64,000 nucleotides of DNA from Polyangiales bacterium (GCA_044229975.1 JBGARZ010000010.1:224001-288000); one strand, 5' to 3'. Shown: positions 22,686 to 30,365, counted from the stretch's first letter. The notes: generated from the letters alone by a model not told the origin. Program-made: numbers and translations.

Positions 22686-22717
22686 CAACACACGGTCTCG
22701 GTTGCCAACGAGACCAC

Positions 22718-22760
22718 CCAACGAACCTGATGCTTTCGAGTATCGGGTTCGTTGGCATTT
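22718..22760 (+). terminator. Strong hairpin after tRNA (17-bp stem, UUCG loop); probable terminator or processing signal
   Basis: CCAACGAACCTGATGCT-TTCG-AGTATCGGGTTCGTTGG followed by CATTT. Confidence 0.7.
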
Positions 22761-22899
22761 GGGGGTATCGGGTGGCAGCCATTTCACGGTCATCGCGCCC
22801 GGCCGCCGTGGGTTTCCAACCCGCGGTAGCCGAGTGCAATGGTGTGCGGACGGCCTTGGCTTGATCCAACGCCCGCGGTTGACGCATGGTGCGCGCCCC

Positions 22900-24861
22900 A
22901 TGCGACCCCTCCGCCCCACCACCCTCGCGATCGCGCTGCTCCTCTCGGCTTGTGGCGCTCGTCAGACCACGGCCACCAACACCCCGACGCCCGTCGCTAC
23001 CGCCGACGCGCAGGTCGTTGCTACCGCCGACGCGGCCGTTGCTTCGCCGTGGGCCTCGCTCGGTCGCGCCGAGCTCTCGGCGCTGCTCACCGAAGACGCC
23101 CAGCGACGGCTGGTGAGCGAGGGCGACCCGGGCTTCGACGTGGCCCAGCTCGCGAACTACGTCGCCCACCCCGATCAGGCCCCGGAGCTGTCGGGCAAGC
23201 GGTGCGATCGGCTCCTCGACCTCGCCGTGGTGGCGCTCGCCAACCATCGCCTCGACGAAGCGGCGGGGCTGGTTGCTCTCGTGCGCGCCAAGGCCCGCAA
23301 TCGCAACATGGCCTTCACCGGGACGACCATCCTCGCCGAGGTCGCGCGGCAGCGCGCGGGCGCCGATGGCGCGGCCCAGCAGGCGGCGATCGAGGGTGTG
23401 TTGCGCGAGCTGCCGAGGCCGCGCTTCGGGGCGGCGACGGTGGTGTTCCAGGTGTTTCAGGCGCAGGCGCAGCTCGACGCGCGCGTGGAGCAGACGAAGC
23501 AGCAGATGGTGTCCGGCGAGACCGCGCGGGCGGTGCTGTGGTTCAGCGATGTGATGCCGAGCATCGTGCAAAACAGGGAGCGCTTCCTGGCGGCCGTGAC
23601 GGCGGTGCGCGCGGTCAACGACGCGATGCCCGCGGAGCCGGAGTTCAACTTCCACGACGTCGACCTCGCCCGTCAGGCCGACGCGCGCGACGTCAACGTC
23701 GCCGTCTGGGACGTCGGAACCAACCCCGAGCTCTTCCGCACGCAGCTCCTCGTGAACCCCGGTGAGCCCGCCAACGGCCAGGACGACGACCACGACGGCA
23801 TCGTCGACGACACCGTCGGCATCGCGAGCGACCCCGACCCGGCGCAGACGGCCCTCTTCTACAACCCCGGCGCGGAGATCATCGAGCGGTACTCGCCCTT
23901 CCTCCGCGGCGTGATGGACCTCCGCGCCGGCATGGCCTCCACCCCCGCGGCGCAGCGGGTGCTCGAACTCCAGCGGGGCATCACCGATGCGGCCCAGGCA
24001 CGCCAGCTCGATCAGCGCCTCGACGCGGTGGGCGAGTGGGCCCACGGGACCCACGTCGCCGGCATCATGCTGCGCGGCAATCCCCACGCGCGGTTGGCGA
24101 TCTTCCGCAGCGCGTGGGCGGGCGAGAACCGCGTCTACGACGAGCGCGGCCCGACGGACGCCGAGCTCGACACCGAGCAGGCCAACATCGACGCCATCGC
24201 GGCCTTCATCAACCGGCACCACATCCGCGTGGTCAACGCGAGCCTCGGGTTTTCGCAGGAGTACGTGGAGGACTCGCTGCGCCACCAGAGCGCGCTCTAC
24301 CGCACCGACGCGGACGTACGCGCTCGCGCGGCCGTGGTGCAGGAGCGGCGGCGAAGCAACTGGCAGCGGGTGTTCACGACGTGCCCGGAGACGCTCTTCG
24401 TGGTCGCGGCGGGCAACAGCAACCAGGACGTGATGGAGTACGGGGAGGTTCCGGCGAGCAACCAGAACGCGCCCAACCTGCTGGTCGTGGGCGCGGTCGA
24501 CCGCTTCGGTCACTGGGCGACGTTTACCAACAGCAACCCCGAGCGGGTGCAGGTGTTCGATCACGGCGTCGAGGTGGACAGCCTGGTTCCGTCGGGTGAG
24601 CATGTGCCGTTGTCGGGGACGTCCATGGCGTCGCCCAACGTCGCCAACCTCGCGGGCAAGCTGGTGTCCCTCGACCCGGCGCTCACGCCCGCGCGGCTCA
24701 TCACCATCATCCGCGAGACCGGCCGCGCCATCGCCGCGCCCTTCAGCGGGCGCATCACCGACGAGGTCGCCGCCATCGCTCGCGTGCGGCGGGAGCGTCA
24801 GAGCCCGCGCAGCGGCGCAATTGCCCCGCGCGCTGCGGCTCCGGCGAGGCCCGCCCGCTGA
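22900..24861 (+). CDS. S8 (subtilisin-like) serine peptidase lipoprotein
   Basis: Lipobox LSAC; catalytic motifs VAVWDVG, HGTHVAG, AAGN and SGTSMASP. Confidence 0.93.
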   Translation: MRPLRPTTLAIALLLSACGARQTTATNTPTPVATADAQVVATADAAVASPWASLGRAELSALLTEDAQRRLVSEGDPGFDVAQLANYVAHPDQAPELSGKRCDRLLDLAVVALANHRLDEAAGLVALVRAKARNRNMAFTGTTILAEVARQRAGADGAAQQAAIEGVLRELPRPRFGAATVVFQVFQAQAQLDARVEQTKQQMVSGETARAVLWFSDVMPSIVQNRERFLAAVTAVRAVNDAMPAEPEFNFHDVDLARQADARDVNVAVWDVGTNPELFRTQLLVNPGEPANGQDDDHDGIVDDTVGIASDPDPAQTALFYNPGAEIIERYSPFLRGVMDLRAGMASTPAAQRVLELQRGITDAAQARQLDQRLDAVGEWAHGTHVAGIMLRGNPHARLAIFRSAWAGENRVYDERGPTDAELDTEQANIDAIAAFINRHHIRVVNASLGFSQEYVEDSLRHQSALYRTDADVRARAAVVQERRRSNWQRVFTTCPETLFVVAAGNSNQDVMEYGEVPASNQNAPNLLVVGAVDRFGHWATFTNSNPERVQVFDHGVEVDSLVPSGEHVPLSGTSMASPNVANLAGKLVSLDPALTPARLITIIRETGRAIAAPFSGRITDEVAAIARVRRERQSPRSGAIAPRAAAPARPAR

Positions 24862-26552: not shown

Positions 26553-27347
26553 TCAGGTCTCGTCGGGGTCGACACCCAGCGCGCGCAGCTTCGCCGCGAG
26601 CCGATCGGCGCGAGCCTTCTCGCTCTCGGCGCGAGCCCTCTCGCTCTCAGCGCGTGCCTTCGCATCATCGGCGCGTGCCTTCTCGGTCTCGGCGCGAGCC
26701 CTCTCGTCTGCGGCGCGCTCGTCGCCCGTGGGGATGAGCGCTCCTCGGGCGTCGTGCCAGCGCAGCCAGCGCTCGGCGCAGGTCTCGAAGACGCCCTCCC
26801 ACGGGAGGAGCTCGAGCTCGAGCTGTGGAATCCACGCCCGGTCGATGGGCGAATACACCTTCCCGTGGAGCTGAAAGGCATGGAGCTCGCTGCCGCCCAG
26901 GATCTGCTCCGGGTCCCACACCACATAGAACGGGATTCGCATCCGCGCGTAGCGCCGCAGCTTCGTCGACAGCTCGCCGCCCTCGCGGTTGGACACCACC
27001 TCGATGACGACGTCGGGCACCTTGCCGTACTCCCACACGAAGTACGATCGATGCTGCTTCACCCAGATGTCGTCGGGGAGGGTCACCTCCACGCTGACGA
27101 GGGCGTCGGGGACGAGCGGCGGCTCCTTCGCCGTCGCGAAGAGGCCCACGTTGGCCATGGCGACGAAGGTGCCCGGCGTGCCGTCGTCCCCGCCCGGCGC
27201 CATCCAGCCGGCGTAGAGCGGCGACGTCAGGAGGCGCTGCTGCTTCTCGGAGTAGAGGTTGTCCACGGGCGTGTCGTCCTCGGTGACGAGGCCGCTCACG
27301 TCGGGGACCGGAACGTCGAACCCCAGGTCATGCGAGTAGGTGACCAT
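26553..27347 (-). CDS. Uma2 family (PD-(D/E)xK) endonuclease
   Basis: TEDDTPVDN, VPD, SYFVWEYGK.PDVVIEVVSN, Y.V.DP; C-terminal ERARAE coiled coil ending in KLRALGVDP. Confidence 0.92.
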   Translation of the reverse strand: MVTYSHDLGFDVPVPDVSGLVTEDDTPVDNLYSEKQQRLLTSPLYAGWMAPGGDDGTPGTFVAMANVGLFATAKEPPLVPDALVSVEVTLPDDIWVKQHRSYFVWEYGKVPDVVIEVVSNREGGELSTKLRRYARMRIPFYVVWDPEQILGGSELHAFQLHGKVYSPIDRAWIPQLELELLPWEGVFETCAERWLRWHDARGALIPTGDERAADERARAETEKARADDAKARAESERARAESEKARADRLAAKLRALGVDPDET

Positions 27348-27475: not shown

Positions 27476-27973
27476 ATGAACGACCGCCGTCGAGACCCCC
27501 TCGCGCCCACGCTCTCGCCCCCACCCACCACGCCCGCGCTGGTGCGCCGCACGGCCCTCGCGGTGGCACTCAGCGCCCTCGGCCCGCTCGCGTGCAGCTC
27601 GACCACCACCGCGCTCGACGCCGCGCCCGTCGACACCGCGTCGTCCACCGACGCCACCGACGCCCCGCTCGTCGACGCCCCCGCTCCGCCCGATCGCATC
27701 ACCCCGATGCCTCCGCCGATGCCCGCTCCGCCCGACGTCATCCCGCCGATGCCGCCACCGATGCCTCCGCCCGTCGACAGCGGGTTCATCCCGCCGATGC
27801 CGCCACCGATGCCTCCGCCCGAGGACAGCGGCGTCGTCCCCCCGATGCCCGGTCCCCTCGACGGCGGCTTCATCCCGCCGATGCCTCCGCCGATGCCTCC
27901 GCCGATGCCTCCGCCCGCGGACAGCGGCTTCATCCCGCCGATGCCTCCCCCTCCACCCGACGGCGGCGACTGA
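27476..27973 (+). CDS. Proline/methionine-rich repeat lipoprotein (putative modified substrate or precursor)
   Basis: Signal peptide with lipobox PLAC; six repeats of I/V-(P/T)-P-M-P, mostly IPPMPPP(MPPP), four preceded by DSG/DGG. Confidence 0.8.
   Translation: MNDRRRDPLAPTLSPPPTTPALVRRTALAVALSALGPLACSSTTTALDAAPVDTASSTDATDAPLVDAPAPPDRITPMPPPMPAPPDVIPPMPPPMPPPVDSGFIPPMPPPMPPPEDSGVVPPMPGPLDGGFIPPMPPPMPPPMPPPADSGFIPPMPPPPPDGGD
27696..27958. repeat. Nested coding tandem repeats (12-bp CCGCCGATGCCT within ~45-bp units)
   Basis: Recurring GACAGCGGCTTCATCCCGCCGATGCCTCC-like units. Confidence 0.85.
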
Positions 27974-27981
27974 GCACCGGC

Positions 27982-29031
27982 ATGCGTCCGCTCCGCTCGC
28001 GCCATCGACGCCCGACGCGCGCCCGCGCCGCCCTCACCCTCGCGCCCGACTGGCAGGTCTGGATCGCCGACAACCTCCTCCGCCAGGCGCCCCGCGATGA
28101 GCTCACCGCCGCGCTCGCTGCGCAGGGCCTCACCCCCGCCGCCATCGCCGCCGCCATCGCCGCCGTCGAGTCGTCGCCCGCCTTCGTCGCCGCGCAGCGC
28201 CACGCCCGCCACCACCGCCGCGCCGAGCTCGTCGCCCACCTGCACCGCAGCCTCGCGGCCACCAGCACCGCACCCCGCGCCATCGAGCGCCGCGCCCACC
28301 TCACGCCCGCCGAGTTCTTCGAGCGCTACTACGCCACCAACAACCCGGTGGTGCTCACCGACGTCGTGACGGCGTGGCCCGCCTTCGGCCGCTGGACGCC
28401 CGCCTTCCTCAAAGAGCGCTTCGGCCACGTCGAGGTCATGGCCGCCGTCGGCCGCGACTCCGACCCCGACTACGACCTCCACACGCCGACCCTCAGCCAG
28501 CCCACGTCCCTCGGCGACTTCGTCGACCGCGTGCTCGCCGTCGGTGAATCCAACGACCTCTACCTCGTCGCCAACAACCGCAACTCCGACCGCGACGGAC
28601 TGCAACCGCTCTTCGACGACGTCACCTTCGCGCCCGGCTGGCTCGACGATGCCCGGCGCCGCGGCTCCACGGCCCTGTGGTTCGGCCCCGGCGGAACGGT
28701 CACCCCGCTCCACCACGACACCTCCAACATCCTCTTCGGCAACCTCTACGGAACCAAGCGCTTCACCCTCATCGCCCCGTGGGAGACCGCCCTCCTCGAC
28801 TGCACCCGCGGCGTCTACTCCCTCGTCGACCCCGAGCGCCCCGACCTCCAACGCTTCCCCCGCTACGCCGACGTCGTCACGCGCGAGGTCACGCTCCAGC
28901 CCGGCGAGATGCTCTTCCTCCCCGTCGGCTGGTGGCACCACGTCCGCGCCCTCTCGGTGAGCATCAACCTCGCGTTCACCAACCTCGCGCGACCCAACGC
29001 CTTCGACTGGTATCGCCCCGGCGAGCAGTGA
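27982..29031 (+). CDS. JmjC/cupin-like 2-oxoglutarate Fe(II) oxygenase (FIH/JMJD5/TYW5-like)
   Basis: FFERY....PVVLTD....WPA..RW; LWFGP.GT.TPLHHD (HxD); G.KRF.L (2OG Lys); L.PGEMLFLP.GWWH.V (distal His). Starts 8 bp after the repeat lipoprotein. Confidence 0.92.
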   Translation: MRPLRSRHRRPTRARAALTLAPDWQVWIADNLLRQAPRDELTAALAAQGLTPAAIAAAIAAVESSPAFVAAQRHARHHRRAELVAHLHRSLAATSTAPRAIERRAHLTPAEFFERYYATNNPVVLTDVVTAWPAFGRWTPAFLKERFGHVEVMAAVGRDSDPDYDLHTPTLSQPTSLGDFVDRVLAVGESNDLYLVANNRNSDRDGLQPLFDDVTFAPGWLDDARRRGSTALWFGPGGTVTPLHHDTSNILFGNLYGTKRFTLIAPWETALLDCTRGVYSLVDPERPDLQRFPRYADVVTREVTLQPGEMLFLPVGWWHHVRALSVSINLAFTNLARPNAFDWYRPGEQ

Positions 29032-29201
29032 CGGCGAACGGTCCTCCGACGCTGCTGAATGGTCGCGGGCCCGCGAACCCTTCACCGATACACGGCGGTC
29101 CGCAGCGGCGGTCAGGGAGGGCACTTCGCCGCACCACGATGGCGCTGTGCTTCGCGCGCCGACGGTGCATCCTCCGCGCTCACCAAGGACGGAGGTCTCC
29201 G

Positions 29202-30365
29202 ATGAAGCGATGCGTACGTGGGTCTGCCGTAGCCGTGGCGATGCTGGTCGCCGGGTGCGGCGCGCGCACGGGGCTCAACGTCCCCGACGTGACCTTCCCC
29301 GACGACGCGGCCTTCGACGTGAGCGACGTGACGGACGTCGCCGACGTGCGCGACGTGCTGCGGCCGCCCACCTGCGCAACCGGTCGCTTCACGCTCACGC
29401 AGCGCGGCGCCGACATGATGCTCGTGATCGATCGCTCGGGCTCCATGGGGCAGCGCCTCGGCAACCTGCGTGTGGGGCCGTCCAAGTGGGTGCTGCTCCG
29501 CGCCGCGCTCGCCACCACGCTGCCGATGTTTCAAGACCGCATCGGGACGGGCGCGCTCTTCTACCCGCAGGAGGGCGCCGAGAGCCGCGTGTCGACCTGC
29601 GCGCTGCCCAACATCCCGAGCGTCGACATCAGCCCCGCGGCCAACACGGCCTCGCGCGTGCTCGACGTGTTCGACACCGAGCCCGGCGGCAGCACCCCTA
29701 CTGCGGCGGCGCTGCTGCGCGCGTATACGTGGTTCGTGCGCAACCCCAACCGCGCCCGCGCCCGCTACCTCGTGCTGGCCACCGACGGCGGGCCCAACTG
29801 CAACGCCGACCTCGACCCCTCGCGCTGCGTCTGCGTCGGCGCCGGCGGCATCGGCGGCGGCCGGAGCTGCGCCCGCGACGCCGACGGCCTGCGCTGCCTC
29901 GACGACACGCGCACCGTGTCCAGCATCGCGCAGATGGTCGCCAACCCCGTGGCGTCGATTCCCACCTTCGTCATCGGGCTCGCCGACGAGACCGACCCCA
30001 CCTACGCCGCCACGCTCACCGCCATGGCCGTCGCGGGCGGTCGCCCCTTCCGCGACGCCACGGGGCGCGCCACCTACTACAACGTCGAGCGCGCCGAAGA
30101 CCTCACGCGGGCCTTTACGACCATTCAAGACACCGTGTCGCGCTGCGCCTTCGTGACCCCATCACGCCCCGGAGACACCGGGTCCATCGCGCTGAGCGCG
30201 GGCGGCGTGACGGTTCGTCCCGACCCGACGCGCGTCAACGGCTGGGACTGGACCGACCGCGCCTTCGGCGAGATCACCCTCTTCGGCGCGGCGTGCGAGC
30301 AGGTCATCGCGCAGCGCACGACCGAGGTGGTGGCCACGGTGGTCTGCGAGGCCGACGGTGGTTGA
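29202..30365 (+). CDS. vWA-domain Cys-containing lipoprotein (CglB-like)
   Basis: GGAGG RBS; lipobox VAGC; MIDAS DRSGSM, GSTPT and LVLATDGGPNC; C-terminal NGW.W......I.L.G.AC. Confidence 0.85.
   Translation: MKRCVRGSAVAVAMLVAGCGARTGLNVPDVTFPDDAAFDVSDVTDVADVRDVLRPPTCATGRFTLTQRGADMMLVIDRSGSMGQRLGNLRVGPSKWVLLRAALATTLPMFQDRIGTGALFYPQEGAESRVSTCALPNIPSVDISPAANTASRVLDVFDTEPGGSTPTAAALLRAYTWFVRNPNRARARYLVLATDGGPNCNADLDPSRCVCVGAGGIGGGRSCARDADGLRCLDDTRTVSSIAQMVANPVASIPTFVIGLADETDPTYAATLTAMAVAGGRPFRDATGRATYYNVERAEDLTRAFTTIQDTVSRCAFVTPSRPGDTGSIALSAGGVTVRPDPTRVNGWDWTDRAFGEITLFGAACEQVIAQRTTEVVATVVCEADGG

Follow-up and report, generated by a model that had tools for sequence, protein, structure and literature searches.

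A Polyangiales genome encodes a short, proline- and methionine-rich predicted lipoprotein directly ahead of a JmjC oxygenase, which raises the question of whether the lipoprotein is the substrate of the enzyme and, if so, which of its residues is modified. The two genes occupy positions 27476 to 29031 of the window, i.e., the whole 64,000-nucleotide stretch of DNA analyzed here. The lipoprotein is quite probably the substrate, and the reading that we favor, with a probability of roughly 0.5, is that the cytoplasmic JmjC enzyme hydroxylates prolines of the PPMPPP repeats before export. The features of the pair are:

27476..27973, plus strand: Pro/Met-repeat predicted lipoprotein, candidate substrate (165 aa, no folded domain)
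27512..27550, plus strand: Pro-rich motif L-[ST]-P-x-P-x-x-P-A-L-V-R in the signal-peptide n-region (residues 13-25, conserved in partners)
27551..27595, plus strand: predicted hydrophobic signal helix (residues 26-39) and lipobox Cys40, based on the Cys, the -1 residue, and the model helix
27695..27958, plus strand: six repeat units with core (I/V)-P-P-M-P-P-P and acidic DSG/DGG spacers (residues 74-161)
27982..29031, plus strand: putative JMJD5/FIH-like JmjC (Cupin_8) Fe(II)/2-oxoglutarate (2OG) oxygenase (349 aa, 8 bp after the lipoprotein gene)
28033..28260, plus strand: N-terminal four-helix extension of the JmjC enzyme (residues 18-93)
28711..28719, plus strand: metal-binding H244-H245-D246 (H244 and D246 invariant in 31/31)
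28756..28758, plus strand: K259 (invariant in 31/31)
28936..28938, plus strand: distal H319 (invariant in 31/31)

The Pro/Met-repeat lipoprotein

The lipoprotein consists of a basic n-region, a hydrophobic stretch (residues 26-39), a D/A/T-rich linker, and six Pro/Met units; Cys40 is its sole Cys, and the 88 residues of the repeat region include 45 Pro and 11 Met. The first-pass annotation had described six near-identical units and no fold. The six units and the absence of a fold hold, as the AlphaFold2 model contains a signal helix alone (residues 21-33, pTM 0.16), but the units are similar rather than near-identical, with unequal lengths of 12-20 aa and, in the gene, a 48-nt period with 67-87% matches (TRF). 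The protein has no Pfam or NCBIfam match and falls only into unnamed clusters under 0.9 in the ESM Atlas. Its segment holds 10 copies of PPMP and is not a product of chance, because no other six-frame segment of the 10-Mb genome exceeds 3. Reading the region in antisense, as Gly-Ile repeats of the minus strand, was rejected, since the signal, the Cys, and the motif are conserved on the plus strand, where the Pro codons vary at the third base.

Conserved across the partners of related JmjC enzymes are the Cys, the core (I/V/P)-P-P-M-P-P-P, and the Pro-rich n-region motif. The lipobox of the window's protein is non-canonical at -3, which is Pro (P-L-A-C). The Cys is invariant in 26/26 aligned partners, the residue before it is Ala, Gly, or Ser in 53/53, and the residue at +2 varies (Gly in 24, Ser in 14, Asn in 5, and Asp in 3 of the 53). 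With a basic n-region, a hydrophobic helix, and a small residue before an invariant Cys, the partners have the features of bacterial lipoproteins, and they are predicted to be lipid-anchored at the membrane or surface. Tat export was rejected, as the Arg pair is not conserved. Sorangium partners (L028-L049) end in PPPCE or PPPCK, and their spacers often hold extra Cys residues, which may form cross-links. A second Pro-rich predicted lipoprotein in the window's genome (L153:3654-4178, G000:C39, about 67.3 kb), with NPP repeats and one PPMPPPMP, has neither the motif nor an oxygenase neighbor and is a possible substrate in trans.

The n-region motif is new here, having been absent from the first-pass annotation. 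With 3 duplicates and 1 cut locus set aside, a pattern tuned on the partners themselves matches 47 of 53 partners versus 9 of 635 lipoprotein-like ORFs used as controls from the window's genome, and a profile of the motif found nothing else in that genome below E 0.08. Export needs no such motif, and signal peptidase II would cut it away; we therefore infer a role in cytoplasmic recognition or in delaying export. The partners at L052 and L102 carry only a short form, so the motif may be dispensable.

The JmjC oxygenase and its N-terminal extension

The ATG of the enzyme gene follows the lipoprotein ORF after 8 bp, as first noted. The product matches Cupin_8 in Pfam (E 5.5e-40) and no NCBIfam family, and it lacks a signal peptide; source annotations call it "cupin-like" and its partner "hypothetical." The model (pLDDT 92.8) has four N-terminal helices at residues ~22-93. 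Its nearest structures are JMJD5, JMJD7, TYW5, and FIH, with JMJD5 as the top match (Z 25.7, rmsd 2.4, 227 aligned) at about 28% identity. H244, D246, H319, K259, Y194, and T241 are invariant in 31/31 aligned members, and H244/D246/K259/H319 are equivalent to JMJD5 H321/D323/K336/H400, counted from the alignment and from PMC5862942. The JMJD5 residues that bind 2OG-C5 (Lys, Tyr, Ser/Thr, and Trp) are all retained in the clade. This pattern points to an Fe(II)/2OG oxygenase with an intact metal triad, in agreement with the first-pass annotation, which had reported an intact HxD...H triad, the Lys, and an extra N-terminal helical segment.

The 2OG-C1-binding Asn of JMJD5 (N327) falls at position 250, which is Ile in the window's enzyme, Ile/Val/Leu in the family, and Asn in 0/73 rows; the adjacent N249, conserved in 67/73, may replace it. 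Clade-typical positions over the 73 rows are R158 (73), D/E165 (71), A197 (69), H245 (68), and N249 (67). They are fixed whatever the partner and variable in paralogs, and the JMJD5 alignment suggests that they line the pocket. JMJD5 is described as binding substrate Arg through E238 (salt bridge) and Y243 (cation-pi) (PMC5862942). In the clade, the former position is Glu in 2/73 rows and the latter Tyr in 0/73; on this alignment the clade lacks the substrate site of a JMJD5-type arginyl hydroxylase.

The window's genome has seven JmjC paralogs, none of which has the N-terminal extension (0/7) or a Pro-rich neighbor (0/7). Clusters of several JmjC paralogs and 2OG oxygenases lie at G000:C30:79000-88500 and C39:212400-215300, the former also with B12-radical-SAM-like genes identified by eye.

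No Pfam family matches the extension in more than 1 of 28 members, and the ESM Atlas gave no usable match to it; its profile matches 797 representatives at 50% identity. Its first ~45 residues are a module that recurs before prolyl-4-hydroxylase (P4H) domains in fusion proteins. The extension is not specific for PMP partners, as it is also found in cyanobacterial enzymes without an adjacent Pro-rich gene and before P4H domains. Substrate recognition would proceed through this module, the signal-peptide motif, or both.

Conservation of the gene pair

Among the best 80 of 356 confirmed JmjC loci, 51 form a myxobacterial clade in the tree, of which 49 could be evaluated, two being cut upstream. 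Directly upstream of the enzyme gene and on the same strand, 45 of the 49 have a PMP-repeat gene and one a PPQP-repeat gene (46/49), although the loci are not independent, 16 being from Sorangium. The linked loci span Polyangiales, Nannocystaceae, and Bradymonadia. At the other three (L014, L015, and L060), the partner is elsewhere in the genome, in L060 at a distance of 11 kb upstream, with a broken reading frame in that assembly; enzyme and partner thus co-occur even when the genes are separated.

When 401 genomes were drawn evenly across the phylum, 14 held the enzyme (called at E <= 1e-50), 4 of which overlap with the best-80 set. Besides the window's own locus there were 13, one of them cut, and all 12 evaluable loci have a Pro-rich gene upstream (8 PMP, 1 PQP, and 3 other Pro-rich); two of the last three genomes have, in addition, another copy of the enzyme gene that follows a PMP lipoprotein gene. 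In the other direction, the partner profile gave 11 matches in the 401 genomes, 11/11 directly ahead of a JmjC gene of the clade. Seven of these had built the profile and four were outside it, and its sensitivity is partial, as it missed known partners in G182 and G245. A raw DNA-pattern count (30/401 genomes) was dropped, since 5 of the 6 unlinked places inspected lacked a JmjC gene and resembled antisense Gly-Gly-Met frames. The linkage of JmjC homologs to PMP-repeat lipoproteins, on which the first-pass annotation hinged, is thereby confirmed: the pairing is real and conserved in both directions.

Neither gene was matched in G365 (same genus, 93% complete) or G120 (same family, 96% complete), and the unit is therefore accessory. 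Within about 5 kb at 45 loci, a third gene was never shared by more than 3 close relatives; the filter applied to the ORFs misses some genes, as it retained the JmjC gene itself in 38/45 of these loci. The pair is apparently undescribed, no description having been found in the open literature; the supplements or data sets of PMC13056109 may list such loci.

Which residue may be modified

Partners outside the myxobacterial clade bear on the target residue. A quick tree was built on 80 rows, without 12 of the 16 Sorangium loci, most of those from Microcoleus, and duplicate or cut loci. In it, every member of a 44-row myxobacterial group (SH-aLRT 93) has a PMP or PQP partner. A second group, of 24 rows (support 83), holds acidobacterial, cyanobacterial, and metagenomic enzymes, and five of its rows have a signal-less or 5'-cut Pro-rich peptide upstream: PTPHP at L071, with a stop codon that overlaps the enzyme start, PTPTP (L057), PPHPT/PPHEP (L124), PSPTP (L133), and PPGHH (L134). 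At L128, L130, and L140, Pro-rich stretches lie inside larger nearby proteins, and the remaining rows have no Pro-rich gene or are too short to judge. Most loci outside the myxobacterial clade lack a Pro-rich neighbor, which speaks against the favored reading: adjacent Pro-rich genes occur at 0/23 cyanobacterial and 2/6 other non-myxobacterial loci of the best 80. At 5/23 cyanobacterial loci, PT-repeat surface proteins are encoded two genes on, which may be chance. A draw of 251 Acidobacteriota genomes gave one match, the center genome itself. A PHP/PQP frame at L064 was removed from the partners, as it lacks a start codon and is probably the antisense of a Cys/Gly peptide.

The central residue varies across partners (M, Q, H, T, S, or E). 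Since the non-myxobacterial partners are PHP, PTP, or PSP repeats without Met, Pro is the sole residue common to all. The first-pass annotation had left Pro, Asp, and Met as targets. Asp is unlikely, being absent beside the core in Nannocystis and from the acidobacterial L071 peptide, and sulfur chemistry on Met is unlikely as the reaction of the family because Gln takes its place in L063, L094, and L152.

Several of the non-myxobacterial loci are of interest in themselves. The peptides at L071:4627-4929, L057:4735-4965, and L124:3283-3732 lack a signal and are almost pure Pro/His/Thr, and a class I methyltransferase gene follows the JmjC gene in L071, L124, L127, L128, and L134. L128:2-6728 encodes a PPPG-repeat protein, presumably Hint-like in its C-terminal part, two Stf0 sulfotransferases, further 2OG oxygenases, an SDR, the JmjC enzyme, and a methyltransferase. 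L064:2017-8100 is an MNIO cluster with an acyl-CoA dehydrogenase, a JmjC-clade enzyme, an Stf0 sulfotransferase, and probably a Cys/Gly-repeat precursor.

Fusions were surveyed among 38 proteins picked for odd length from the best 150 extension matches. Two of the 38 (P0149 and P0168) join the JmjC domain to a 2OG-FeII_Oxy_3 domain, ahead of which sits an extra copy of the extension module. The fused domain of P0149 resembles Bacillus, human, and algal P4H structures (E 3.6e-26 for 5iax to 1e-18); its JmjC domain is 34% identical to the window's enzyme and deviates at some clade-typical positions. In the window's genome, a search for the fused P4H domain gave one weak match (E 3.6e-5). L099, from the same order, has in one gene row a PF11397 GlcNAc transferase (E 3e-51), a flavoprotein, a PPEPG-repeat protein, and a 2OG-oxygenase-JmjC fusion; this operon (L099:389-4903, G190:C61) is a candidate bacterial hydroxyproline glycosylation pathway. 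We take PF11397 to be the GT60/Gnt1 family. Gnt1 glycosylates hydroxyproline, and the family also includes a trypanosome polypeptide transferase (PMC6939170). The P4H fusions and L099 tie the JmjC clade to proline chemistry and would be consistent with such a reaction by the JmjC domain, although a P4H fusion could equally mean that the JmjC domain performs a different one.

A serious rival keeps the same pair and substrate and places the reaction on the residue between the prolines, which would only present it: C3 hydroxylation of Met (Gln in PQP) or, less likely, Met oxidation or S-demethylation. The center of all myxobacterial-clade lipoprotein partners is Met or Gln, two near-isosteric residues in the same IPPxPPP frame, so it may be the target; Glu or Gln recurs there in L098, L099, and L124, and JMJD5 is reported to hydroxylate C3 of an unbranched side chain (PMC5862942). 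On the other hand, the L071 peptide has no Met, Gln, or Glu past the initiator and the L133 repeat is only P/T/S, and both enzymes share the clade-typical residues; sulfur chemistry is, moreover, impossible on the three Gln variants. We consider a central target unlikely on balance.

Less likely still is that the enzyme acts on a lipid, glycan, small molecule, or other proteins, with the lipoprotein as a co-regulated partner, scaffold, or acceptor. Many loci outside the clade adjoin Stf0 sulfotransferases, methyl-, glycosyl-, or carbamoyltransferases, or an MNIO, as at L064, a setting that could fit glycan or small-molecule substrates; the 38 odd-length proteins include five sister-clade fusions to Stf0 sulfotransferases and one to another sulfotransferase, and the cyanobacterial members lie among housekeeping genes. 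Against this, the lipoprotein is the sole conserved neighbor in the 45 myxobacterial-clade loci, accompanies the enzyme even when the genes are apart, and has no domain for anything beyond being modified or displayed.

Excision of the hydroxylated repeats as small peptides by a housekeeping protease, i.e., a multi-core RiPP, is improbable: repeated cores, a tailoring enzyme, a conserved leader-like motif, and the JmjC enzymes of RiPP pathways described in PMC12707348 and PMC11575548 fit it, but the lipobox Cys is invariant, the spacers differ by lineage (DAG, TTG, DEGE, AGEE, and GGSGG) without a common cleavage motif, cores often merge, and the lack of a third conserved gene, and of any conserved peptidase or transporter within about 5 kb at the 45 loci (trans-acting proteases being possible), argues against the released cores that the first-pass annotation had offered as one outcome.

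Proposed route to a hydroxyproline-rich lipoprotein

Under proline hydroxylation as we favor it, the two adjacent genes would be co-translated and the cytoplasmic enzyme would bind the unfolded, newly made prolipoprotein and hydroxylate many of its PPMPPP repeats; modification is placed before export because the enzyme lacks a signal peptide. By analogy with JMJD5 and FIH, carbon 3 of Pro would be the site. Sec export, lipidation at Cys40, and removal of the signal would then yield a cell-envelope lipoprotein displaying a stiff, hydroxyproline-rich polyproline rod. As a stiffened polyproline II rod, it might confer protease resistance, accept glycans, or serve in adhesion, and its stripe of Met residues may act as a soft-metal ligand or an oxidant sink. 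The extensin-like surface protein proposed in the first-pass annotation gains support. A broader version is possible, and we offer it tentatively: an extensin counterpart built by the first JmjC-fold prolyl hydroxylase, which would read a signal-peptide motif, modify prolines by the dozen, with 3-hydroxyproline as the probable product (or dihydroxyproline in the P4H fusions), and send the rod to the myxobacterial surface, while in other phyla the same enzyme would start longer glycosylating, sulfating, or methylating pathways on Pro-rich peptides.

Comparison with known systems

The DAG-RiPPs DybA and NedA, which are hybrids of RiPP and lipoprotein, likewise pair a short lipoprotein-signal gene with a cytoplasmic iron oxidase (Chen et al. 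2026, PMC13056109). There, cytoplasmic MNIOs modify prolipoproteins, outrunning export, and lipidation follows, the order that we propose here by analogy (PMC13056109). Those MNIOs act on a Cys motif, whereas here a JmjC/2OG enzyme (Cupin_8) would act on many Pro-rich repeats, and a Cys-containing core is absent, the only Cys being that of the lipobox. DAG-RiPP pathways are described as leader-independent, in contrast to the conserved motif inside the signal peptide here, and the main text of that study never mentions JmjC, cupin, or proline (PMC13056109). The pair would accordingly add a different enzyme class than MNIO to lipoprotein-linked peptide modification.

JMJD5, JMJD7, FIH, and TYW5 (PDB 6F4N etc.) share the closest fold, the metal triad, and the 2OG-C5 binders with the window's enzyme, which differs from JMJD5 in lacking the Arg-binding E238/Y243 and the 2OG-C1 Asn and in its extra N-terminal helical module (JMJD5 residues as given in PMC5862942). 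The bacterial JmjC enzymes BipG (ornithine) and CzlI (Phe to Tyr) also hydroxylate RiPP precursors encoded by a neighboring gene; they belong to multi-gene clusters and modify one residue of a released product, and are set apart by published description rather than by sequence (PMC12707348, PMC11575548). The reported top structural homolog of CzlI, 1VRB, scored Z 12.6 here, far below JMJD5. In the literature covered, no JmjC prolyl hydroxylase and no JmjC RiPP hydroxylase for Pro was found, and known prolyl hydroxylases are placed in another subfamily (PMC4543633).

Plant extensins similarly combine a signal peptide with unfolded Pro-rich repeats and multiple hydroxylation, the last being proposed here (PMC4769139). 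Some relatives of the enzyme carry a fused P4H domain, with Bacillus and Chlamydomonas P4H among the PDB matches. Extensins differ in their Ser-Pro3-5 repeats, as opposed to (I/V)PPMPPP, in being modified by a P4H-type rather than a JmjC enzyme, and in lacking the lipoprotein anchor; the myxobacterial unit has no glycosyltransferase, and its protein would carry hydroxyproline that might accept glycans. The pair would thus work like a DAG-RiPP or a plant extensin while lacking tested features of membership in both. Esi of Sorangium So0157-2 is a myxobacterial protein with homologs annotated cupin/jumonji, and was rejected as the same family by its description (356-419 aa, mostly Pseudomonas, 3 myxobacterial strains; PMC5442856); the JmjC clade, at about 330-350 aa and in at least 16 Sorangium genomes among the best 80 of 356 loci, is set apart by description.

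The locus supplies a candidate substrate for a bacterial JMJD5-like clade that is uncharacterized and annotated only "cupin-like" beside "hypothetical" genes. If the target is Pro, the JmjC fold would gain a new reaction and bacteria a dedicated route to hydroxyproline-rich envelope proteins; Met or Gln as target would be an unusual protein modification too. Lipidated RiPPs would, if the proposal is true, extend beyond MNIO enzymes, with a recognition motif inside the signal peptide. Cultured carriers are Sorangium So ce56 and Nannocystis exedens, and a polyproline-hydroxylating enzyme would be useful for biomaterials.

Genomic surroundings

The flanking genes are unrelated (Uma2 nuclease, SpoU methylase, lipid kinase, and antiporters). 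A promoter scan, with 0 sigma-70-like sites and 1 terminator-like site on the opposite strand, was uninformative, and a single small-share RNA run covering only 28730-28887 of the JmjC gene has no bearing on expression. A subtilase-family predicted lipoprotein (22702-24861, plus strand; Peptidase_S8, E 3.7e-24) and a Uma2 nuclease with a C-terminal repeat (26553-27347, minus strand) are not conserved beside the pair. Downstream, at 29201-30365 on the plus strand, lies a predicted lipoprotein gene with a vWA-like motif (recognized by eye and unmatched in Pfam), which is otherwise found beside the JmjC gene only in L009-L011.
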